64,000 bases of DNA, taken from Octopus vulgaris (taxonomy: Eukaryota). The stretch lies in the NCBI GenBank assembly GCA_951406725.2, contig OX597829.1, forward strand, positions 17,050,001 through 17,114,000. The letters run 5' to 3'. A program made the translations under genes and the position numbers. Below, in pieces: positions 2,360 through 46,959 of this stretch; within the stretch, counting starts at the first letter, position 1; each line of letters begins with the position of its first letter. The notes below the pieces were generated by a model. The model was not told the origin of the DNA. It did no database searches and saw only the letters and a program-made list of their open reading frames with translations.

Positions 2360-2448
2360 AGAGGTGGAGGTGGGGAAGAGATTCCTATTAGATGGACAGA
2401 CCAGACAGATAGACAAACAGATAAACAGTCAGACAGGCAGACGTACAG

Positions 2449-2484
<36 letters not shown>

Positions 2485-3134
2485 ACATATATATATGTAT
2501 GTACAACACTGTATAAATTCTGTACTTGGAATGACCAAGTTTAAATACTGATGGATCTCACTCATATTGCTATTGGAAACTTACATTGTGTATAAACTCT
2601 ATATTTGTTCGAGCTCTTCTTTCGTGCAATCCAATTTTCCGCTTTTACTTTCAGTAAATAAATGTTTCGCATATTGATAGGAATTGTTCACAAAGCTACA
2701 ATGGTTCTTTTCTCTCTCCTTTCTTCTGCTCTTCCTTCTTTGTTTTCTTAGTTGACTGCGATCCTTTTTTTTTTCTCTTTATATAGCTTCTTTTTCATCC
2801 CATATTCTCTTAATTCGATTCATGAGACCTCTTTTATTTAGCTCACCGCTCAGCCAGTATTCTGTTTCTATTTCGTTTACATCTTTTTCCCATTTCATTC
2901 TTTTTTTTTTTTTGCACTTTTGACTGCTTTTTTGATCCTGGTCAATAGCTTCATGACGACCTGCCGGAGCTTCATTAGATACTTCCTGCCTGCCTGCGTG
3001 ACACCTTCGCTGTTAAGAGTTCCAAATCCCGTTAGCAAGGTTGTGGTTATTATTTAATCTTTACATTGCTCATTTAGAGGTGGAACTTGTAAGGTTGTGT
3101 AAGCACCAGTATTTTTATTGTGACATCATCACTA

Positions 3135-3368
3135 GACAGCGAGCTGGCAGAATCGTTAGCACGCCGGGTTAAATGCTTTGTGGTATTTTGCCCGCCACAG
3201 CGTTCTGAGTTCAAATTCCGCCGAGGTCGACTTTGCCTTTCATCCTTTCAGGGTCGATAAATTAAGCACCAGTTACGCACTGAGGTCGATATAATAGACT
3301 TAATCCGATCGTCTGTCCTTGTTTGTCCCCTCTGTGTTTAGCCCCTTCTGGGTAGTAAAGAAATAGGT
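3135..3368 (+). mobile_element. tRNA-derived SINE family A (Nin/Deu-like central domain)
   Basis: A-box-like GAGCTGGCAGAATCGTTAGC, B-box GAGTTCAAATTCC, central GCCTTTCATCCTTTC.GGGTCGATAAATTAAG; about 20 related copies in the window. Confidence 0.85.
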
Positions 3369-4389
3369 CGCTGACGAAGGCTTCGAGAGTCCGCACTTGC
3401 CCTCGTGTACACAGTGCCAGTCTCGTTCACTCCATTGTTTTATATCTTTGTATTTGACATTGGAGTGCTAATGTTCATCCTCCTCGACACGCTGTTGTTA
3501 CCTATTCGGGAGAGATATTCGGTGGAGTGAGGGTGGGGGCTGTTAGATGGGTTTCAGGTTTGGTCTGTTATGTTAAGAGCGAGGGGGTTAGTGGGGGGTT
3601 ATTAGGTATTATTATCATCCTCATCATCATCATCATCATCATCAAGTGAGGGAGCAGCGCATGCCATCAAAGTGACATTGCGGTACAAATATACGAGGCC
3701 CAATATATCCATCGTGACTACCCGTATGATAAGGGTACACTAGGCACATGGATCACAACCAAATGTGCGCGACATAGTGATTCTCATATCAAGATAAAGA
3801 GCGCACGACCTTGCAGGTGGGAGCCCAGTTAGAGTGTTCTTCAAGTCGAGTAGCCCATCAGTGAATAAAGTTTATTCAAGGGTGATGAACGAAACATCCA
3901 GAAAAGAATTATTCAAACCCCAAAGAATTCCTCTCAATACATGGCTATGAAGCCCACCCTACCACCACCACTGCTACTTCTGCTCGTGATCAGAGATGCA
4001 CATATCGTCATCCATTAAGGAACATGTTCGACTGGTTAAGGTCAAGTAACTGACAGGCAAATCTGTGGTATTGAGCAGAATATTTGCTGTAGCCCATCTT
4101 TTATACCAAGACAAAACAATGTACATGATAACACTTCCAATCAGTTAAGATTAGAAACCATGCGGTTCAGTGCCTGTTACTGCATCAGGGCATTAGCACG
4201 CCGGGTGAAATACTTAGCGGTTTTTCGTCCGTCTTGACGTTCTGAATTCAAATTCCACCGAAGCTAACTTTGTCTTTCATTATTTCGGGGTCGATAAAAT
4301 AAGTACCAATTGTGTAATCGACTGACACACCCCACACCCCAAAAAAAATTCAGGCCTTGTGCCTGAAAAGATTTATTATTTATTTTTAA

Positions 4390-5540
4390 AGAAAAGATTT
4401 GTTTTCTTCTGCTCTAAAGCTTTGTTCGCATCCAATAAGTCCACTTACCCCTCTTTTTCTTGGTACAAACAGTCTGTCTGTGCCACTTTTTGGGTGGAGT
4501 ATCCCATATCTAGTCAGCAACTTCCTTGTCTTTCTGTCTAAGCTGTTTAGTTCGTTTGTTGTCCATGCGATTACCCCTGCTCCATATCTAAGGAGTGAAA
4601 CTACCCAGGTGTTGATAGCTTCAATCTTATTCCATCCGTTTAATTTCGACTTAACGATCAGTCTCAGTCTGCACAAGTACTCTACCTTAAATTTTTCTCT
4701 CATTTCTTTCTCCATCAATTTATCCATTTCCAATATCCCCAACTACTTATTACCCGTCTCTTCTATCTGCTTCACAACCTCCCCTGACGGTATCGTCCAT
4801 ACATTTGATTTTGCCTCTCTTAAAGACTAACACACCACACTTTCTCAGTTCGAACTCCATTCTGATATTAGCACTGAAAGGATACACCGTATCAACGAAG
4901 GAACTGACTTGGGATTCATCTTTACCGTAAAGTTTGAGGTCATCCATGAATAACAAATGGTTGACTGTTTGTTGGTGGCTCTTGAATACATACTTAGCTT
5001 TTGCTTTCCTCAGAATCAGTGTTAGTGGTATCATGCACAGTAGAAGGATCAGTGGGGACAGGCAGTTCTCTTATAAGATGCCTCTCCTGATTTCTATTGT
5101 CCTTAAACTTCTTCCATATGCTGTCAGTTCCGTCCTCCACTTCGTTATTTCGCTATACTTTTCCCAAGCAATCGCTCAACATTCGATGCAATACCAAATA
5201 GGTTCATACACTCCATAATCCAAAAATGTGGGATTATATCGTAAGCCTTACGATAATTGATCCATTAAATGGCTAAGTTACTTATCCTCCTCTTGCAGTC
5301 TCTAAGTACATTTTTGTCTATCAGGAGTTAATCCTTGGTACCTCTGCACTTACGCTTGCAACACTTCTACTCCTGTAGCAGGCCTCCATTTTTTTTTCCA
5401 GATGTCCGTACATTGACTCTGCGACTATTCTAGTGAATAATTTCCACATTAGTGGCAAGCAGGATATCGGCCTGTAATTGTGTACCTTTTTCGATGTATC
5501 AGGAGCTCGCCTGATACAGACATACATCAAGACACTATAC
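4390..5540 (-). pseudogene. Decayed R4/Dong-clade non-LTR retrotransposon RT
   Basis: Frameshifted fragments [82 protein letters not shown]. Confidence 0.85.
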
Positions 5541-9540: not shown

Positions 9541-10007
9541 TATTTCTTTACTATCCACAAGGGGCTAAGCACAGAAGGGACAAACAAGGACAGACAAACG
9601 GATTAAGTCGATTACATCGACACCAGTGCGTAACTGGTACTTAATTTATCGACCCCGAAAGGATGAAAGGCAAAGTCGTCCTCGGCGGAATTTGAACTCA
9701 CAACGTAGCGGCAGACGAAATACGGCTACGCATTTCGCCCGACGTGCTAACGTTTCTGCCAGCTCGCCCTCTTATAATACCTATTGCTTTACTACCCACA
9801 AGGGGCTAAACACAGAAGGGACAAACAAGGACAGACAAACGGATTAAGTCGATTATATCGACCCCAGTGCGTAACTGTTACTTATTTAATCGACCCCGAA
9901 AGGATGAAAGGCAAAGTCGACTTCAGTGGAATTTGAACTCAGAACGTAACGGCAGACGAAATACGGCTACGTATTTTGCCCGGCGTGCTAACGGTTCTGC
10001 CAGCTCG
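9541..10007 (-). mobile_element. Two adjacent SINE family A copies
   Basis: Reverse complement of the family A sequence, twice. Confidence 0.85.
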
Positions 10008-13252: not shown

Positions 13253-16200
13253 AGCAAAAACTGTAAGGGCAGGGAAAGAAACACCTGCAAATTCTACCTG
13301 AGGGGGGACTGCTGGTACGGCGTTGAAGGTGCAAACTGTCGCTTTGCACATCGGAGGCCCTACCAAAACCGCACGGACGCGAGACAGAGGTCCCTCCCTC
13401 AGGGAGAACAAAAACAAAAACAAAAAGAAAAAGTTAAAAGAAGGGAAAAAAGCGCACTGACCACTACTGAAAGACGGTATGCAGATGTGGTGCGCGGAAA
13501 CCCAACAGGTGGCCAGCTTCACCCAGATGTGAGAAGGGCGGCAGCTGAACAGCAGTCTTTTTGTGCATGGCACAAAAAATTGTTCAGCAGCTGACCTGGC
13601 TACAAGCACAAAGCTGGAACTACCACCACATAAGGCCACCTCCAACAGATGCAGGATGGCCACCACATAAGGCCACCTCCAACAGATGCAGGATGGCCAC
13701 CACAGACACCAACACCAACACACACACCACAAAAATATTTCTACTGAATGTAGGAGGGCTGCTGCGCGGAAACTGTAAAAATAAAATTTCATTCCTGAGA
13801 GACCTTGTGACATGCAATCAAGCTATATGCATGGCACTCACAGAAACGCATCTTGAACCCGATATAGGTGATGCAGAAATACAAATGCCGCAATATGCAG
13901 TCATACGCACAGATAGAAAAGGGAGGAGCCATGGTGGAGTTGCAATGTACATCCGAGATGACCTCACGCCCCAGGTCCTGCTGTCATATTCAAACTCAGT
14001 ATGTGAAACTCAAATTGTACACATAAGACAACTGAATATCGTCATATGCACTACATATCGCCCACCAGATGCCCCAAAACACTCAGGCATGTTTGAAGAC
14101 TGCCTAACAAAAATAGGAGAAGTCCTCACCAACCTTGAACAGCACAACAGTGTATTCTTCATGGGTGACTTTAACCTCCCCAATGTGGAATGGCCTGGGG
14201 GGCAGATGCTCCCAGGGATGACACACCATCAGCAGGCACAGGTGGAGTCCCTGCTCCATCTCACAAATGTCTCTTTCATGGAGCAAATAGTTCTGCAACC
14301 AACAAGGGCAGATAATATACTGGATCTCTGCTTCACAAACAATATGGATATTATCCATAATGTTAATGTGATGCCGACAATGATCTCGGATAACAACATA
14401 ATAGAGCTGTCTATGTATGGAACAAAAGCCCCCGCAGACACACAGCCTATACGAAGCACCCACCATCTCTCCAACTTAAACTTTTATAAAGCCAACTGGA
14501 AGTCGATTGAGAAAGAGATCCTCAAACAGGATTGGCCTGAATGTCTCTCCACACCGGACATAAACATGAAACACAAACACTTCATGTCCATAATACAAGC
14601 CATATGTGACAAATATGTCCCAATGTGCAGGGCCAGCACACTCAAGAACAAAAACAGGATCCCTAGAGAAAGGAGGATTCTTATGAGACGACGGACAAGG
14701 ATTGCAAACCGCCTGAGCAAGCACACCAAAAGTGGTGAGAAGTCTCGGCTCGAAAGAATGCTAATGGAAACTGAGAAAAGTCTACATCAGTCCCATGAAA
14801 AGGAGAGAGCAGATAAAGAAGCTTGGGTGATAGAAAATATAAAATCAAACCCTAAAGCTTTCTTTAAGTTTGCCAAAGAGACAGCCACAGTGCACCAGAG
14901 AATAGGACCTCTCTTCCAAAAAGATGGCTCTCTCACAGGAAATCCCACGAGGATAAGTGAAATACTGAACGAACAGTTCCAAAGTGTGTTCACTACACCT
15001 CTAGGACACAGGCAAGTAAACAACCCAGAAGAATTCTTTGCCACTTTACCAGCGGCCAAAGAGACAAAAATTGAGTACATCAACATCGAAGATGATGATA
15101 TCACACTAGCCATTGATGAGATTGACACAAACTCAGCTGCTGGACCTGATGGATTCCCAGCGATCCTTCTCAAATCGTGCAAACGAGCCCTTGCAAAACC
15201 GCTACAGCTTCTTTTTCAGAGCTTTCTTACAAGTGGTAAGCTCCCAGTCAAACTGAAAGAGGGGGTAATATGCCCTATCCATAAGGGAGGTAGCAGAGCA
15301 GATGCTAAAAATTATAGGCCTATCTCTCTGACCTCACACATCAGCAAAGTCATGGAACGAATAGTCCGTAAGAAACTAATCATGTTCCTTGAAGAAAATG
15401 ACTTACTGTCTAACACCCAGCATGGATTTCGACCAGGTAGAGGCTACCTAACACAGCTCCTGCAACACTATGACTGGGTGTTGAAACAGCTACTAAATGG
15501 CTCAAATGTGGATGTAATATATCTTGACTTTGCAAAAGCCTTTGATAAAGTCGACCATGGTATGATCTGTCACAAACTGCGTGGTCTCGGCATAGGCGGG
15601 AAACTTGGAGAGTGGCTGCACAACTTCCTAAAAGACAGAAAACAGGCAGTTGTGAGCAATGGAGCCACCTCCAAGGAAACGCAAATAACAAGCGGTGTCC
15701 CACAGGGCACTGTCTTGGGGCCACTGATGTTCATAGTGGCCCTTTCAGACATGCCTTCAGTTGCTACGATGACCACCCTTGCTAGCTATGCAGATGACAC
15801 AAAAGTCACCCACGCAATACAAAACCCTGAAAATATTGCGCATCTGCAACATGAGCTGGACACAATATACAGGTGGGCTGAGGACAACAACATGCAGTTT
15901 AATGCAGGTAAGTTCCAGGCCCTGCGCTACTGGCACACTAAGGTAAATGACGTGAAGACTGGATACACTGGCCCAGGAAGAATTGCAATCCCTGAGTCAA
16001 AATCAGTGCGTGACCTGGGCATTGACATGAGCAATGATGCATCTTTCCAAATGCATATTGCTAATCTGGTGATAAAATGCAGACGGCTAGCTGGATGGAT
16101 TCTCCGAACTTTCAGAACAAGAGAGAAGGAGACACTGATGGTCCTATGGAAAACATTCGTCCTCAGCCGCTTGGACTACTGCTCCCAACTTTGGTCACCA
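13253..16200 (+). mobile_element. CR1-group LINE, 3'-truncated
   Basis: ORF1-like CCCH zinc finger at 13286-13351 (CKFYLRGDCWYGVEGANCRFAH), then the APE-RT ORF; ends abruptly at a Helitron fragment. Confidence 0.85.
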
Positions 16201-16227
16201 CGACCACCCTTGGACAGTTTTAAATGA
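13561..16227 (+). CDS. LINE ORF2: AP endonuclease plus reverse transcriptase (C-terminus chimeric, true start uncertain)
   Basis: APE motifs LNVGGL, LTETHL, GDFNLP, LDLCF, SDN; RT motifs YRPISLTS, QHGFRPGR, YLDFAKAFDKVDH, GVPQGTVLGP, YADD. Confidence 0.85.
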   Translation: MCMAQKIVQQLTWLQAQSWNYHHIRPPPTDAGWPPHKATSNRCRMATTDTNTNTHTTKIFLLNVGGLLRGNCKNKISFLRDLVTCNQAICMALTETHLEPDIGDAEIQMPQYAVIRTDRKGRSHGGVAMYIRDDLTPQVLLSYSNSVCETQIVHIRQLNIVICTTYRPPDAPKHSGMFEDCLTKIGEVLTNLEQHNSVFFMGDFNLPNVEWPGGQMLPGMTHHQQAQVESLLHLTNVSFMEQIVLQPTRADNILDLCFTNNMDIIHNVNVMPTMISDNNIIELSMYGTKAPADTQPIRSTHHLSNLNFYKANWKSIEKEILKQDWPECLSTPDINMKHKHFMSIIQAICDKYVPMCRASTLKNKNRIPRERRILMRRRTRIANRLSKHTKSGEKSRLERMLMETEKSLHQSHEKERADKEAWVIENIKSNPKAFFKFAKETATVHQRIGPLFQKDGSLTGNPTRISEILNEQFQSVFTTPLGHRQVNNPEEFFATLPAAKETKIEYINIEDDDITLAIDEIDTNSAAGPDGFPAILLKSCKRALAKPLQLLFQSFLTSGKLPVKLKEGVICPIHKGGSRADAKNYRPISLTSHISKVMERIVRKKLIMFLEENDLLSNTQHGFRPGRGYLTQLLQHYDWVLKQLLNGSNVDVIYLDFAKAFDKVDHGMICHKLRGLGIGGKLGEWLHNFLKDRKQAVVSNGATSKETQITSGVPQGTVLGPLMFIVALSDMPSVATMTTLASYADDTKVTHAIQNPENIAHLQHELDTIYRWAEDNNMQFNAGKFQALRYWHTKVNDVKTGYTGPGRIAIPESKSVRDLGIDMSNDASFQMHIANLVIKCRRLAGWILRTFRTREKETLMVLWKTFVLSRLDYCSQLWSPRPPLDSFK

Positions 16228-23431: not shown

Positions 23432-24069
23432 AACGCCATTGAGAGAGAACCTCTGCATGGACTCTTGACAGGTTAGAAAAAACAACAGACAAAACCTCAC
23501 TTGATTCCTTGGTAACCGTTTTGTTTTTATCACAAAGGGGGACTTTAAGTAATTTAGTCTAGATATAAATTTAAAAATAGACGACTGTATCAACCAAAAT
23601 TTTCCTTTCTTTTAATTTTTACTTCGTTCAGTCATTGGATTCCGCCCATGCTGGAGCATCACCTTGAAGGGTTTGATCGAAGAAATAGATCCCAGCACTT
23701 ATTTTTATTTTTAAAGTCTAGTTCTTATTCTATTGGTCACTTACGCCAAACGAAGTTACAGTGACGTGAACAAACCAGCACCGGTTGTCAAGCTGTCTAA
23801 TGGAACACAAACACTGATACAAAGACACCGCGATACGTACATACATACATACGTAGCCGTGTGAGTGTATGAAAGACAGGCTTCTTTCAGTTTCCATCTA
23901 CCAAATCCACTTACAAAATATTAGTCGATCCAGGCTATTTGCATTATAGTAAGACACTTGTGCAACGTACTGCACAGTCGGACTGAACCTGGAACCTCGC
24001 AGTTCAAAGCGAGTCTTAACTGCACAGCTATGCCTACATACAGTAAGTAAACTATATATTAGTCTCCAA

Positions 24070-24485
24070 GGCGGCGAGCTGGCAGAAACGTTAGCACGCC
24101 GGCCGTAATGCTTAGCTGTATTTCGTCTGCAGTTACGTTCTGAGTTCAAATTCCACCGAGGTCGACTTTGCCTTTCATCCTTTCGGGGTCGATTAAATAA
24201 GTACCAGGTACGCACTGGGGTCGATATAATCGACTTAATATGTTTGTCTGTCCTTGTTTATCCTCTTTGTGTTTAGCTCCTTGTTGGTAGTAAAGAAATA
24301 GGTATTTCGTCTGCCTTTACGTTCTGAGTTCAAATTCCGCCGCGGTCGACTTTGCCTTTCATCCTTTCGGGATCGATTAAATAAAGTACCAGTTTCGCAC
24401 TGGGGTCGATATAATCGACTTAATCCGTTTGTCTGTCCTTGTTTGTCCCCTCTGTGTTTGGCCTCTTGTGAGTAATAAAGAAATA
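24070..24485 (+). mobile_element. SINE family A head-to-tail dimer
   Basis: Junction AAAGAAATAG|GTATTTCG; TSD TATATAT(T/C)AGTCTCCAA at 24053-24069 and 24486-24502. Confidence 0.85.
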
Positions 24486-29719: not shown

Positions 29720-30268
29720 TGTCGTGTGTGTCGTGCATCTGCTATATTTCTTTATCAATATCGATAACGCAGCAATGTTGGGATTTCATTGTAGCAGAGT
29801 TAGTAGCAGAGGTGAAAGGGTATATGCATCAAATGAAATATAAAACAGAACACAAAGGATGTCGCAGTACACGTGTTTCAAGCTTTATACAACAACCTAT
29901 TCTTACATCAATGTATAATCGACGTAACAGATGGACACACACATACATATATACATCCATGTATACCTATACATACGCATATACACATGCATGTATATAT
30001 GTTAGGTATATGTATGCGTGCGTGCGTGTGTGTGTGCGTGCGTGTCTGCGTGCGCGCGTGAGCTTGTGTATGCATGCTCCAGCGTCGGTGCGGTATCCCA
30101 GCATGGTCACAGTCCACTGACTGAAGCAAGTTAAAGAATACGCATAAACAATAACAGTACGTTTTGTGTACAAGTGAATAGGAATGCGTTGTGTTTGGGT
30201 TTCTACAGAGAAGTGAATAATCATCATTCTACTCTATTTGGTTTACTTTACAAAATTTTATTAATTAC

Positions 30269-30846
30269 CTATTTCTTTACCACCCACAAGGGGCTAAACA
30301 CAGAGAGGGCAAACAAGGACAGACAAACGGATTAAGTCGATTATATCGACACCAGTGCGTAACTGGTACTTAATTTATCGACCCCGAAAGGATGAAAGGC
30401 AAAGTCGACCTCGGCGGAACTTGAACTCAGAACGTAACGGCAGACGAAATACCTATTTCTTTATTACCCACAAGGAGCTAAACATAGAGGGGACAAACAA
30501 GGACAGACAAACGGATTAAGTCTATTATATCGACACCAGTGCGTAACTGGTACTTATTTAATTGACCCCGAAAGGATGAAACGCAAAGTCGACCTCGGCG
30601 GAATTTAAACTCAGAACGTAGCAGCATGCGAAATACCTATTTCTTTACCACCCACAAGGGGCTAAACACAGAGAGGACAAACAAGGACAAACAAGCTGAT
30701 TAAGTCGATTACATCGACCCCAGTGCGTAACTGGTACTTATTTAATTGACCCCGAAAGGATGAAAGGCAAACTCAGAACTTAACAGCAGACGAAATACGG
30801 CTATGCATTTCGGCCAGCGTGCTAAAGATTCTGCCGGCTCGCCGCC
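30269..30846 (-). mobile_element. SINE family A trimer
   Basis: Three tandem units joined at CGAAATAC|CTATTTCTTT; one head only. Confidence 0.85.
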
Positions 30847-34233: not shown

Positions 34234-34918
34234 ACGATGCACGGATTACAGTATGTATGTAATGTATGTACGTGTTGTCGTCTAGTTTGAGAATAAACAG
34301 TAGCGATAATTTTTTTTATTTTCCCAGCGGTGAGTAGAGTAAACGAAAAAATGTTCCCACTTGAGTGTCAAAAATCGCCCGAAAACTTAACCCGTAGTTG
34401 AATGAAAGGATTCACTGTGAAATGACAAGAAAGATGAACAGACATTCTTTATGTCTTTAATTTTGTTATTTATAATTTAATCACATAATTAGCAAAAATA
34501 TGCTAAATGGAATCATAGTAGATGGGTTCAGAGAAAAACTTGCCTGTTGAACAAGTTATCAGTTTCGTAAAATTAACATGATTTACAATGGACTCAGGAG
34601 GGAAATATTTATGAATCACGCCGCCATTGTCAACAGTACCAGTATACAAAATGCATGTAAATGTTAACCAAACAACATTTGATATTTAGAATTCTTTTGT
34701 CTTATTGTTTGAACAGTGGGAGAATGACTTCTAAAATAGATAAATTAATGAACGGAATCCAAAAAAAGGACTTCAAAAGAGCAATTGAAAATGCTAGCTC
34801 AGGAAATCTATTGGATGTTATCGAAAAGAAATTATTCTTTTGTTACCAGAATAGGCGCTTACGTATTTATTTATTCGTTTCCATTTTTTTTTTAGTGACA
34901 GGTACTTACTCGTAAATA

Positions 34919-35400
34919 GGCGGCAAGCTGGCAGAAACGTTAGCACGCCGGGCGAAATGCGTAGCCGTATTTCGTCTGCCGTTACGTTCTCAGTTCAAAT
35001 TCCGCCGAGGTCGACTTTGCCTTTTATCCTTTCGGAAGTCGATAAATTAAGTACCAGTTACGCACTGGGGTCGATATAATCGACTTAATCCGTCCGTCTG
35101 TCCTTGTTTGTCTCCTCCGTGTTTAGCTCCTTGTGGGTAGTAAAGAAATAGCTATTTTGTAAGGCGGTGAGCTGGCAGAAACGTTAGCACGCCGGGCGAA
35201 ATGCGTAGCCGTATTTCGTCTGCCGTTACGTTCTGAGTTCAAATTCCGCCGAGGTCGACTTTGCCTTTTATCCTTTCGGAAGTCGATAAATTAAGTACCA
35301 GTTACGCACTGGGGTCGATATAATCGACTTAATCCGTCCGTCTGTCCTTGTTTGTCTCCTCCGTGTTTAGCTCCTTGTGGGTAGTAAAGAAATAGGTATT
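34919..35400 (+). mobile_element. Two near-identical full SINE family A copies in tandem
   Basis: Both have heads and share private variants (CTTTTATCCTTTCGGAAGTC), indicating local duplication. Confidence 0.85.
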
Positions 35401-37055: not shown

Positions 37056-37513
37056 TATACATTTGCAAATAAATGTAGATATGCACGTATGCATGTAAGT
37101 CCCTGTGTTGGTATTTGCTGGCTTTCTCCAATATTTGAGCGAATTCTATATATTCCACGATTCTATAGCGTCCCACTTTTTGGAACTATATATACGACAA
37201 ACAACAAATTCTTCTCAACACAATCGTTTGCTCTTTCTGGAATTATTTTTATAAACGTTAGCGACATATTATTTTTGGATTAACTTGAGAATTACTTGTG
37301 TAGATATTTAAGGAGGAGGAGTAAAAGAAGAACTGGGAAAATAGATGAAGACAGACATGGGGACGAAAAACAAGAACAGGAATTACAACAACAACACTAT
37401 ATTAAATCAAACAAAAACTCAACCGAATTATAAACAATTGCTCAGCAGCTGTTGTTGCTGCTGCTGCTGCTCTTCTTCTTCTTCTTCTTCTTCTTCTTCT
37501 TCTTCTCATTACT

Positions 37514-37745
37514 TATTTCTTTACTACCCACAAGGGACTAAACACACATGGGGACAAACAAGGACAGAAAAAGGAATTAAGTCGATTATATCGACCCCAG
37601 TGCGTAAATGGTATTTATTTAATCGACCCCGAAAGGATGAAAGGCAAAGTCGACCTCAGCGGAATTTGAACTCAGAACGTAACGGCAGATGAAATACGGC
37701 TAAGCATTTCGCCCGGCGTGCTAACGTTTCTGCCAGCTCGCCGCC
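37514..37745 (-). mobile_element. SINE family A
   Basis: Full-length reverse copy. Confidence 0.85.
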
Positions 37746-37890
37746 TTATTCTCATTACTATTAAGGCAGTGAGCTGGCAGAATCGTTAACACGCCAGACA
37801 AAATGCTTAGCGTCGTTACGTCCTGAGTTCGAATTCCGCCGAGGTCGACTTTGAATTTCATTCTTTCGGAGTCGATATACTAAAGTACCA

Positions 37891-38102
37891 TACAGTTCTA
37901 TATTTAAGAGATGAGGAAATATGTACATTATTTACATTATTTACATTTGATGGATATTTGTCCTCATCGTGTTAGTTGTTAACTCAACGTTTCGCCCTAT
38001 GCCCGTGGGCATATGCCGTAGTAGTTAAGAGCGCGGGCTACTAAGCCCAATATTCCGAAATCGATTCCAGACAGTGACCTGAATAATAATAATAATAATA
38101 AC

Positions 38103-38163
<61 letters not shown>

Positions 38164-38306
38164 TCGAAAAGTAGCTTAGGAATGAGAACCCAGGTTCGAA
38201 ATTTCACCAAGGCACCTGATGAAGGCTGGAGGGTACATCAGCTGAAACGTTGTGCTAACAACAAACAAGATGAGAACAAATATCCATCAAATGTAAATAA
38301 TGTAAA
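37891..38306 (+). mobile_element. tRNA-headed, hammerhead-bearing non-autonomous element (copy 1) with inverted 3'-end fragment
   Basis: TSD TAAAGTACCA (37881-37890, 38307-38316) inside a family A SINE; inverted piece 37891-37994; tRNA-like head 38007-38079; (AAT)n; hammerhead 38211-38256. Confidence 0.8.
38211..38256 (+). ncRNA. Type I minimal hammerhead ribozyme motif
   Basis: GGCAC-CTGATGA-A-GGCTG-gagggtacat-CAGCT-GAAA-CG-T-T-GTGCT. Confidence 0.7.
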
Positions 38307-38389
38307 TAAAGTACCAGCTGAACACTGGAGTCGATATAAAACTAACTTGACACCCAAAATGTCAAGCCTTCTGCCTATTGTAGAAAGAA

Positions 38390-41426: not shown

Positions 41427-42015
41427 AGCATCGCATTATATCTGATGGCAGAATCGTTAGCACGCCGGGCGAAATGCTTAGCCGTATTTCGTCTGTCGTT
41501 ACGTTCTGAGTTCAAATTCCGCCGAGGTCGACTTTGCCTTTCATCCTTTCGGGGTCGATAAATGAAATACCAGTTTCGCACTGGGGTCGATGTAATCGAC
41601 TTAATCAGTTTGTCTGTCCTTGTTTGTCCCCTCTATGTGGGTAGTAAAAAAAAAGCAAATAGGTATTTCGTCTGTCGTTACGTTCTGAGTTCAAATGCCG
41701 CCGAGGTCGACTTTGCCTTTCATCCTTTCGGGGTCGATTAAATAAGTACCAGTTACGCACTGGGGTTGATGTAATCGACTTAATGCATTTTTCTGTCCTT
41801 GTTTGTCCCCTTGTGGGTAATAAAGAAATAGGTATTTTGTCTGCTGATACGTTCTGAGTTCAAATTCCGCTGAGGTCGACTTTGCCAGTCATCCTTTCCG
41901 GGTCGATAAATAAAGTATCAGTTTCGCACTGGGGTCGATATAATCGACTTAATCTGTTTGTCTGTCCTTGTTTGTCCCCCTCAATGTTTAGCCTCTTTTG
42001 GGTATTAAAGAAATA
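41427..42015 (+). mobile_element. SINE family A trimer in one 18-bp TSD
   Basis: TATATCTGATGAGGAGTT at 41409-41426 and 42016-42033; units joined at AATAG|GTATTT. Confidence 0.85.
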
Positions 42016-42562
42016 TATATCTGATGAGGAGTTCTTAGTGTTTTGAAAGGATGGAAAAATAAAAGGAAGGCAGATAAATGGAATAACAACAGCTGAATAA
42101 CTATTGGAACAATTGATAAGAGTTGTATGAAGAAATATTGAAGGCATTCTTCCAAATATAAAATGGTAACTTCTTTTTTATATTTTTAATTTGAAGAACC
42201 ATTATAGCAAATCTTTATAAAAGAGAAAAAATACCCATGAAATAAAACGAAACAGCGAAAAAAAAAAAAAGGAGAGAGAGAGAGAGACAAAAATCTCGCT
42301 ATCGTTGAGATCTACGAAAGAATATTTCCCAGACATCCGAGATGGTGCTGCTATTTGACATATTTACATCCTTTGAATATATAAACAAAAAGTGTGCTTC
42401 TCCATTGACTGGCGTGAAGTCATACGCGGACACTGCAGTTTCTGATCTACAGATGGGTTTTTAGTAGTTCAGCAATCCTCACTTTTGTTAATACAGGAGG
42501 CTGAAATTCACCCCAGTTTTTTTTATTTTCTTATATGTATGTTTTTAGATTATTTTTGTATT

Positions 42563-42717
42563 CTTATTTACATTATTTACAATAGACAGATATTTGTCCT
42601 CATTTTGTTTGTTGTTAACACAACGTTTCGGCTGATATACCCTCCAGCCTTCATCAGGTGTCTTGGGGAAATTTCCAACCTGAGTTCTCATTCCTAAGGT
42701 ATTTTTCCATGTTGTTG

Positions 42718-42755
<38 letters not shown>

Positions 42756-42857
42756 GTTCAGTCACTGCTTGGAATCGAATTCGGAATCTTGGGGTTAGTA
42801 GCTTGCGCTCTTAACCACTACGCCATATGCCCGTAGGCTCTTAAATATAGAACTGTA
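42563..42857 (-). mobile_element. tRNA-headed, hammerhead-bearing element (copy 2) with inverted 3'-end fragment
   Basis: TSD TTATTTTTGTATT (42550-42562, 42858-42870); head 42760-42832; inverted 20-mer 42838-42857 is the exact reverse complement of 37891-37910. Confidence 0.8.
42617..42662 (-). ncRNA. Type I minimal hammerhead ribozyme motif
   Basis: GACAC-CTGATGA-A-GGCTG-gagggtatat-CAGCC-GAAA-CG-T-T-GTGTT. Confidence 0.75.
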
Positions 42858-43029
42858 TTATTTTTGTATTGTTTTGTATTTTTATATTATCTTGCAAAAA
42901 TTGTTTCACCATTAGAATTGCATCATCAAGCGAAACATTTTTACTAAAATAAAAATGATAAAAAGGAAGAGACAGAGAGGGAGGGAGGGAGAGAGAGAAA
43001 GATACGGAGAGAGAGATAGCGAAACAAAC

Positions 43030-46198: not shown

Positions 46199-46320
46199 TT
46201 ATTTACATTTATGACTTCGTAATTTATGATGGATTTGTGAGTACGCGTTATTGATTTCAATTTGGATTTGGTTGTGCTTGTAGTGTTAATGTTATTTCTA
46301 GTGATGATGGTGGTAGTGGA

Positions 46321-46702
46321 GGCGACGATCTGGCAGAAACGTTAGGACGCCGGGCGAAATGCGTAGCCGTATTTTGTCTGCCGCTACGTTCTGAGTTCAA
46401 ATTCCGCCGATGTCGACTTTGCCTTTCATCCTTTCGGGGTCGATAAATTAAGTACCAGTTACGCACTGGGGTCGATGTAATCGACTTAATCCGTTTGTCT
46501 GTCCTTGTTTGTCCCCTCTGTGTTTAGCCCCTTGTGGGTAATAAAGAAATAGGTATTTCGTCTGCTGCTACGTTCTGAGTTCAAATTCCGCCGAGGTCGA
46601 TATTGCCTTTCATCCTTTCGGGGTCGATTAAATAAGTACCAGTTACGCACTGGGGTCGATGTAATCTCTGTGTTTAGCCCCTTGTGGGTAGTAAAGAAAT
46701 AG
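46321..46702 (+). mobile_element. SINE family A dimer
   Basis: Unit GT(46369)...AG(46552), 184 nt; TAGTGGAGG duplicated in the flanks. Confidence 0.85.
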
Positions 46703-46959
46703 TTAGTGGAGGAGTGTTGTAGTGACGTTTTGCCCACCCCTCAAATCTTCCATCTTTCCGTCTGGACAGATTCGTTTTGTGCTTTTTCCTTTCAGTCTCC
46801 TTTCTTATGGGGACATTTTTCTATTTTTCGAAATCATCTTGCTTTCTTATATAACATGCCTGAATGATCTGATAGAGAAGCGTTTTGTTTTACGTTACAC
46901 TGGGATTCGGAATTTTGCAACCGATTTTTGGTGATGTTCTTTCTGTTGTTTTTTGATAG

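Follow-up and report, generated by a model that had tools for sequence, protein, structure and literature searches.

We found that the short repeat inserted in the window (the whole stretch of 64,000 nucleotides that was analysed) is probably a lone pseudo-LTR of an autonomous Penelope-like element (PLE) with a tRNA-derived head, likely copied from an RNA that Pol III is likely to have started at this head. As judged from the order of parts in the genomic copies, the head, the (AAT)n spacer and the hammerhead tail were shown to make up one unit, the pseudo-LTR that belongs to an autonomous element of the Penelope/Poseidon type, because the head adjoins the end of the ORF and the tail runs into its start. 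The family unit reads ORF, 24-nt leader, tRNA-like head, (AAT)n, hammerhead tail and ORF start.

The repeat family and its coding element

The assembly analysed has 2.8 Gb in about 30 large contigs. Genome-wide, a 30-mer of the tail had 6,802 exact matches and a 24-mer of the head had 2,668, against 0 for the reversed controls. Therefore, the family is not a product of chance. Two insertions of the family were present in a random sample of 40 x 10 kb (400 kb), and a genome total on the order of 10^4 insertions, with a wide error, is suggested. The ORF copies had a median identity of 93% to the majority sequence (best 96.6%). The family is thus old and probably inactive in the O. vulgaris genome.

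We selected 49 loci by protein similarity only (the top 30 matches and 20 lower ones with odd match ends or long frames, including one duplicate). The head lay 3′ of the ORF stop codon in 45 of the 49. All of them belonged to one family, and no headless sister family was found among these 49 loci of the genome. Among 29 other loci selected by the tail, a common sequence was present upstream of the head in two. A DNA search with this shared upstream sequence returned 30 loci, and the head was just downstream in 28 of the 29 left when the query was excluded. At the other end of the unit, a search with the ORF start showed that the tail passes into the ORF without a break. In the tandem arrangement of family copies, the ORF begins inside the pseudo-LTR, and the first in-frame ATG is upstream of the hammerhead. 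The preliminary description had suggested that the 3′ part might match the pseudo-LTR of an autonomous PLE, and that head and tail are linked. The match was found, with the tail being the start of the PLE ORF and not a 3′ end borrowed from a LINE, and the tail was downstream in 26 of 30 heads taken in order of position.

The ORF is about 2.3 kb long and its frame was broken in every copy inspected. It carries the motifs DKG, GLPKIHK (GLPKxHK), MGSPLSP and YVDD, which we take to be those of PLE-type RTs. The C-terminus, CVYSIPCSC-YKGET-RVEEH-IADH, is kept in 15 homologs and is presumably a GIY-YIG-type endonuclease with a CCHH motif. Pfam gave RVT_1 matches in the family ORF and no GIY-YIG match, and a PDB search returned distant RT matches only. 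From YVDD to the nuclease there are just three Cys, which are scattered, and no Neptune-type zinc-finger linker is evident.

Homologs at 55-69% identity were found in ENA and Logan contigs (P0001-P0018), and no sister family was found in the O. vulgaris genome. This distribution might result from horizontal transfer. Assembled contigs of four sequencing runs, under four organism labels, covered most of the element; contigs of this kind do not reveal RNA starts or levels.

The insertion in the window

The 10-bp TSD reported in the preliminary description was found on both sides of the insertion (Table 1). Without the insertion, the flanks align across the empty site with an abundant SINE-like repeat, which gave 57 such matches in 464 kb (400 kb of random DNA and the window), so the insertion does split an older repeat, as had been claimed. 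The (AAT)n stretch and the minimal type I hammerhead with a palindromic GAAACGUU were also present. The inverted arm had been described as a copy of the element's own 3′ end. This is true of 37923-37993, which is 91.5% identical to the forward arm, whereas 37891-37922 is a terminal extension of the family. The helix II closing pair of the window hammerhead is G.U, instead of G-C, and the second family copy in the window has an unmutated hammerhead core. The type of junction seen between the two arms recurs in many family copies.

Table 1. Features of the two family copies in the window
Feature	Position	Strand	Remark
Older SINE-like repeat, 5′ part, interrupted	37771..37890	+	resumes after 38316
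TSD, left copy, 10 bp, TAAAGTACCA	37881..37890	+	
Inverted arm, pseudo-LTR tail positions 174 to about 80	37891..37994	-	long 3′ end
PLE 'tail' extension within inverted arm, ~30 nt	37891-37922	-	absent from forward arm
Palindromic junction, head's first 7 nt inverted plus 2-nt centre	37998..38006	-	
tRNA-derived head, 5′ end of PLE pseudo-LTR	38007..38082	+	
A box; B box	38014-38024; 38057-38068	+	both mutated in this copy
(AAT)n spacer inside pseudo-LTR	38082..38163	+	variable length
Pseudo-LTR tail positions 1-146	38164..38309	+	short 3′ end
PLE reading frame, first 42 codons	within 38164..38309	+	from ATG at 38182
Minimal type I hammerhead motif	38211..38256	+	assigned by core motif and place in PLE pseudo-LTR
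Hammerhead helix I; core; bulged A	38211-15/38252-56; 38216-22; 38223	+	
Hammerhead helix II; GAAA-CGUU	38224-28/38239-43; 38244-51	+	
Predicted hammerhead cut	after 38251	+	within reading frame
TSD, right copy, TAAAGTACCA	38307..38316	+	first 3 nt common to element end
Second family copy	42549..42870	-	14-bp TSD at 42857-42870 and 42549-42562
Second copy, inverted long end (20 nt); head; tail	42838-42857; 42832-42761; 42707-42564	-	

The interrupted SINE-like repeat had 33 matches in the window, often in partial head-to-tail tandems, in which the repeat starts again from position 50, and in some cases in a back-to-back arrangement (37510-37890, 9541-10007, 24069-24485, 30266-30846, 34918-35399, 41446-42015 and 46320-46705). 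Its layout recalls an insertion of the PLE or retrozyme type. The window also contains an open frame of 892 codons (13549-16224, + strand) with YADD and GDFN motifs, which is a well-preserved LINE-type ORF.

The head and the starts of copies

The majority head aligned end to end with tRNAs of the O. vulgaris genome (Arg, Cys, Ala, Thr, Ser, Lys and Glu calls), and the best was Arg with a score of 62. For the dinucleotide-shuffled head, the best score against 35 tRNAs was 29.5 +/- 4.5, and none of 500 shuffles reached 62. The majority A and B boxes match the type 2 promoter consensus, at tRNA spacing. Thus, of the tRNA-like head with A and B boxes in the preliminary description, the tRNA origin was supported by alignment, whereas the boxes of the window copy itself have decayed. 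The head no longer folds as a tRNA. Rfam searches of the window and of a near-majority head, run at both gathering and E-value thresholds, detected no tRNA, and ARAGORN called none in the window, nor on the majority head at relaxed thresholds. The head of Helenus is likewise described as promoter-only and without a tRNA fold, as is usual for such heads (PMC10886601).

We classified 87 insertions from the first 100 tail-pattern places on contig C1, merging the arms of each insertion. Thirty-nine stopped at head position +5 or before without an ORF, 14 began inside the head, 25 had no head within the fetched DNA and nine had the ORF end. Among 50 head-reaching insertions, 39 stopped at the first bases of the head. 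The 50 include two places (L062 and L032) that were left unclassified in the 87; the count is fair because both bear the ORF. The ORF truncation rate was 0.0023 per nt (30 loci), from which about 3% of stops would be expected in a 13-nt window, and a binomial test of the head-start stops was computed on 39/48. Such a pile-up fits an RNA whose start is set by a Pol III promoter derived from a tRNA. Independent samples agreed: an upstream ORF was present in three of 30 position-ordered heads (one pair looks duplicated). The same was true of two out of 29 heads selected by similarity, and of one more in the opposite arm.

Seven or fewer leader bases matched in 122 of 124 short arms, and the 11-nt leader was exact in 220 of the 2,668 genome-wide head matches. 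The three nucleotides before +1 were CAC in 15 of 30 copies and CAT, TAC or AAC in seven more. The simplest reading of these copy ends would be an RNA start 2-3 nt before the head. A few copies (L216, L198) have a complete upstream pseudo-LTR ending at +1 before the ORF, and three (L202, L208 and L210) run on into the previous ORF. Thousands of genomic copies seem to fix the RNA's 5′ end in this way and to point to a Pol III promoter. On the copy ends and the sequence of the head, a Pol III start there is likely.

Clustering at tRNA position +1 is also what might be seen if a longer Pol II transcript were cut by RNase P at the tRNA-like fold, as in MALAT1-type tRNA mimics. However, RNase P would take off the 2-3 nucleotides of leader that most copies retain, and the head has no tRNA fold, so we regard this explanation as very improbable.

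At L326:1840-1880 and in other ORF-bearing loci, the leader ends in 12 nt that are similar, apart from a 2-nt insertion, to the first bases of the head in reverse complement. The fixed junction between ORF and head may itself have arisen long ago by fold-back, like the junctions in new insertions.

Insertion footprint and the origin of short copies

The preliminary description had noted an inverted fragment enclosed by TSDs and had supposed mobilisation by PLE machinery, and both points were borne out across the family. Two divergent arms were found in 50 of the 87 insertions. In 47 of these 50, one arm was long and the other short, ending at 169-174 and 128-148, respectively. Typical 3′ ends were at about 141-147 and 172-174, and the TSDs were about 9-15 bp. 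The TSD score was at least 8 in 35 of the 50 two-armed insertions, versus 4% of mismatched flank pairs. PLEs are described as having a one-sided tail of 30-40 bp (PMC8557442). For PAc of Anolis, two internal RT start sites, two-strand target cleavage and the use of uncleaved RNA have been described in vitro (PMC11167929). The long and short arms of the octopus family match both the one-sided tail and the two RT start sites.

If we borrow the mechanism of PAc, the PLE protein would cut both target strands and start RT inside the RNA at two sites, giving a long and a short arm. Each target end would prime one cDNA, and the arms would join where pairing is possible, in many cases at the palindromic start of the head (37998-38013 here). 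In the window copy, the arms would meet at the palindromic junction, the presumed RNA 5′ end. A cDNA primed in the first pseudo-LTR would reach the 5′ end of its RNA template and run off after about 300 nt, leaving a SINE-like copy such as that in the window, and a cDNA primed in the downstream pseudo-LTR would copy the ORF. We had also considered the GT/AC centre of the junction as a mark of the first strand in a snap-back, and dropped it because twin priming yields both.

The short copies had been interpreted as a separate SINE-like parasite with a borrowed PLE tail. This interpretation was not supported, given the head in the ORF loci and the lack of diagnostic alleles in the short copies. 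We compared 31 ORF-linked arms with 124 head-start arms, two samples that were selected differently. The majority base was equal at every head and tail position but 142, and no fixed difference between the two sets was found. Position 142 is within a variable 9-nt repeat, and the remaining differences among arms are CpG decay. A non-autonomous tandem lineage was considered and rejected: the junction of the shortened unit in L198/L201 had two genomic matches and that of L204 had one. Judging from their shared majority bases and from these near-unique tandem junctions, short and long copies seem to have come from the same masters.

Self-propagation is a related possibility, in which Pol III would transcribe solo pseudo-LTRs anew and the PLE protein would copy them in trans. 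Head-start copies exceed ORF-bearing ones about 4:1 to 9:1 and carry promoter boxes and TSDs, and occasional re-transcribed solo masters are possible. However, the short copies have no alleles of their own, and the shortened tandem units have only the two matches and the one match given above. In addition, PAc is described as requiring ORF sequence past the distal RT start site (PMC11167929), which is absent in solo copies, and a short-ended arm could not template a long arm. We therefore consider a self-propagating SINE unlikely, and prefer the reading of the short copies as lone pseudo-LTRs.

Some further observations concern targets and arms. In L263 (C1:4023300-4025800), a copy was inserted at the same SINE-like repeat motif as the window copy, with a TSD overlapping AAGTACC, which hints at a preferred target. 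Unrelated copies have the same repeat of about 600 nt within their (AAT)n spacer, which another element thus seems to use as a target; L061 (second half) and L064 (far end), for example, share it over 850 nt. L063 (element-oriented 2438-4982) has 934-bp inverted arms that are 99.1% identical, in a copy only 85-90% like others, and these arms might result from recent duplication or gene conversion.

The hammerhead

The majority hammerhead has all three features of PLE minimal hammerheads: a bulged base before 10.1, G10.1-C11.1 and a palindromic 15.2-16.2. Such hammerheads are described as cutting poorly, and as dimers only (PMC4209133). The core together with GAAACGTT was intact in 36 of 118 arms. 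A search with hammerhead models had been proposed in the preliminary description as a check, and Rfam detected no hammerhead in the window at gathering or E-value thresholds. The hammerhead fold alone is not unusual (z -1.5). A predicted minimum-energy co-fold of two copies contained no catalytic dimer, a result that is uninformative either way.

The family copies span the cut site, and of 46 arms starting inside the tail, two start there. The self-cleavage supposed in the preliminary description is thus not visible in the copy ends. This is consistent with uncleaved RNA as the template, as in PAc. A candidate footprint of in vivo cleavage, suggested by L204, L224 and L280, was rejected: starts inside the tail ranged from 11 to 154, and of the four at 93, three were deletions at a short shared word. 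To cut, the hammerhead would require either a dimer or the PLE protein.

A hammerhead of the minimal, dimer type is what a retrozyme might carry, its tandem units being cut by the hammerhead, circularised and reinserted, and retrozymes have been proposed as PLE derivatives (10.64898/2026.07.22.740005). However, the distribution of copy starts just described stands against such an origin, and head-to-tail units were rare by inspection (L266, L267 and L271 among the 87). We give this explanation hardly any credence.

A role in cap-independent translation has been reported for viral type I hammerheads (PMC13725137). By analogy, the PLE hammerhead might have a role in translation here. This is conjecture, because a cut would remove the first AUG and with it the start codon.

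Minimal hammerheads with a GAAACGUU-type end and without a tRNA head were observed in distant metagenome PLE loci (L316:2380-2430; L317-L320). One metagenome scan returned none, and another returned nine distant PLE loci without an A/B-box motif or head similarity.

Possible transcription through the reading frame

We surveyed the majority ORF for TTTT runs, in a test set down before it was run. There were 0 TTTT runs in 2,317 nt, versus 30 AAAA runs. Reshuffling the ORF's own codons gave an expected number of 2.6-2.8 (P 0.03-0.05). With codon usage taken from RT frames other than this one, 3.3 were expected (P 0.03), and a shuffle by codon position gave 4.0 (P 0.012). Seven other RT frames of the O. 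vulgaris genome had 35 TTTT runs in 12.1 kb. The ORF has no TTTT terminator, and Pol III could therefore read it whole. With borderline P values (0.01-0.05) and one family only, this sequence result is suggestive, not decisive.

The pile-up of copies at the first base would be the same for any promoter starting at the first base of the pseudo-LTR. A Pol II start there (or RT fold-back at the palindrome) would leave the tRNA-derived boxes as a relic. The Penelope promoter of D. virilis is described as resembling TATA-less internal LINE promoters (PMC2377424), tandem read-through copies exist and there is a palindrome at the junction. However, the stops coincide with tRNA position +1, the majority A and B boxes are intact, copies free of fold-back likewise begin at -3 to +1, and the lack of TTTT in the ORF contrasts with the runs in the other RT frames. 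It seems improbable, then, that Pol II or fold-back set these starts, and a Pol III start is preferred.

In tandem master copies, Pol III would start about 2 nt 5′ of the head and then proceed through the tail into the ORF. A fuller proposal is that an autonomous protein-coding retrotransposon is transcribed at full length by Pol III. Driven by the tRNA-derived promoter of the upstream pseudo-LTR, an uncapped RNA of about 3 kb would pass through the terminator-free ORF and be translated without a cap, possibly aided by the hammerhead folding around the start codon, and SINE-like solo repeats would be shed as a by-product. We put this forward tentatively and consider it more doubtful than not. 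If full-length transcription by Pol III were true, there would be a direct route from PLEs to hammerhead SINEs of the Sm-alpha type.

Comparison with known systems

Minimal hammerheads in pseudo-LTRs, inverted arms and SINEs with a tRNA head and a hammerhead (Sm-alpha) are already known. No publication describing a tRNA-derived promoter within an autonomous PLE's pseudo-LTR was found, in a search whose scope excluded supplements, Repbase, Dfam and subscription journals, and the octopus family may already exist there as a consensus. In the literature found, the use of Pol III by retroelements is described for non-coding mobile elements only. The main text of an octopus repeat annotation (PMC13282606), as far as consulted, does not mention hammerheads. 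The family touches on two open questions, namely how PLEs are transcribed and what the PLE hammerhead does.

Among known systems, TRIMp3 elements (Cassandra, Helenus and Ajax) also have a Pol III promoter derived from a small RNA inside a terminal repeat (PMC10886601). By their description, they are non-autonomous true-LTR elements with PBS and PPT, whereas in octopus the autonomous element itself bears the head (PMC10886601). The same paper argues that autonomous partners must use Pol II, an expectation that would be contradicted if Pol III makes the coding RNA here (PMC10886601). Two direct LTRs with PBS and PPT were not found in the octopus family, where the arms are divergent and the ends unequal.

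Metazoan non-LTR retrozymes are similarly described as non-coding hammerhead repeats of a few hundred nucleotides derived from pseudo-LTRs (PMC7229834, 10.64898/2026.07.22.740005). They form tandem arrays and circular RNA, and the parts of these accounts consulted do not mention a tRNA head (PMC7229834, 10.64898/2026.07.22.740005). Head-to-tail tandem units with ends set by hammerhead cleavage do not characterise the octopus family.

R2 uses a transcript that is not made by Pol II, being co-transcribed by Pol I. Like the octopus element, R2 and L1Tc have a retroelement ribozyme at the 5′ end of a coding RNA (PMC6765202). They are described as differing in their HDV-like ribozymes, their LINE-type proteins and the absence of an internal tRNA promoter (PMC6765202).

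The closest resemblance in coding capacity is to Penelope/Poseidon PLEs such as PAc (PMC11167929, PMC8557442, PMC4209133). As described for these, the octopus element combines RT with a putative C-terminal GIY-YIG-type domain, the minimal dimer-type hammerhead of the pseudo-LTR overlaps the ORF start, and insertions have an inverted 5′ arm and a 30-40-bp extension at one end only, apparently from an uncleaved RNA template. In PAc, the ORF starts at the hammerhead, with the cut site within the frame (PMC11167929). Unlike PAc-type PLEs, the octopus pseudo-LTR opens with a tRNA-derived A/B-box head, the ORF is without TTTT, and solo pseudo-LTR copies ending at the head predominate.

Sm-alpha and Sj-alpha of Schistosoma are, like the octopus repeat, short, high-copy repeats in which a type I hammerhead comes after a Pol III head derived from a tRNA (PMC2770079, PMC6765202). 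By description, Sm-alpha is tandem and released by cleavage, its hammerhead is canonical and no autonomous element with a shared head is named (PMC2770079, PMC6765202). In contrast, the octopus head belongs to a coding element, and the copies, which are dispersed, have two arms and are uncleaved. An abundant 'SINE with a ribozyme' can thus represent an autonomous PLE's solo terminal repeat; this is relevant to repeat annotation and suggests that Sm-alpha and similar repeats should be re-examined.
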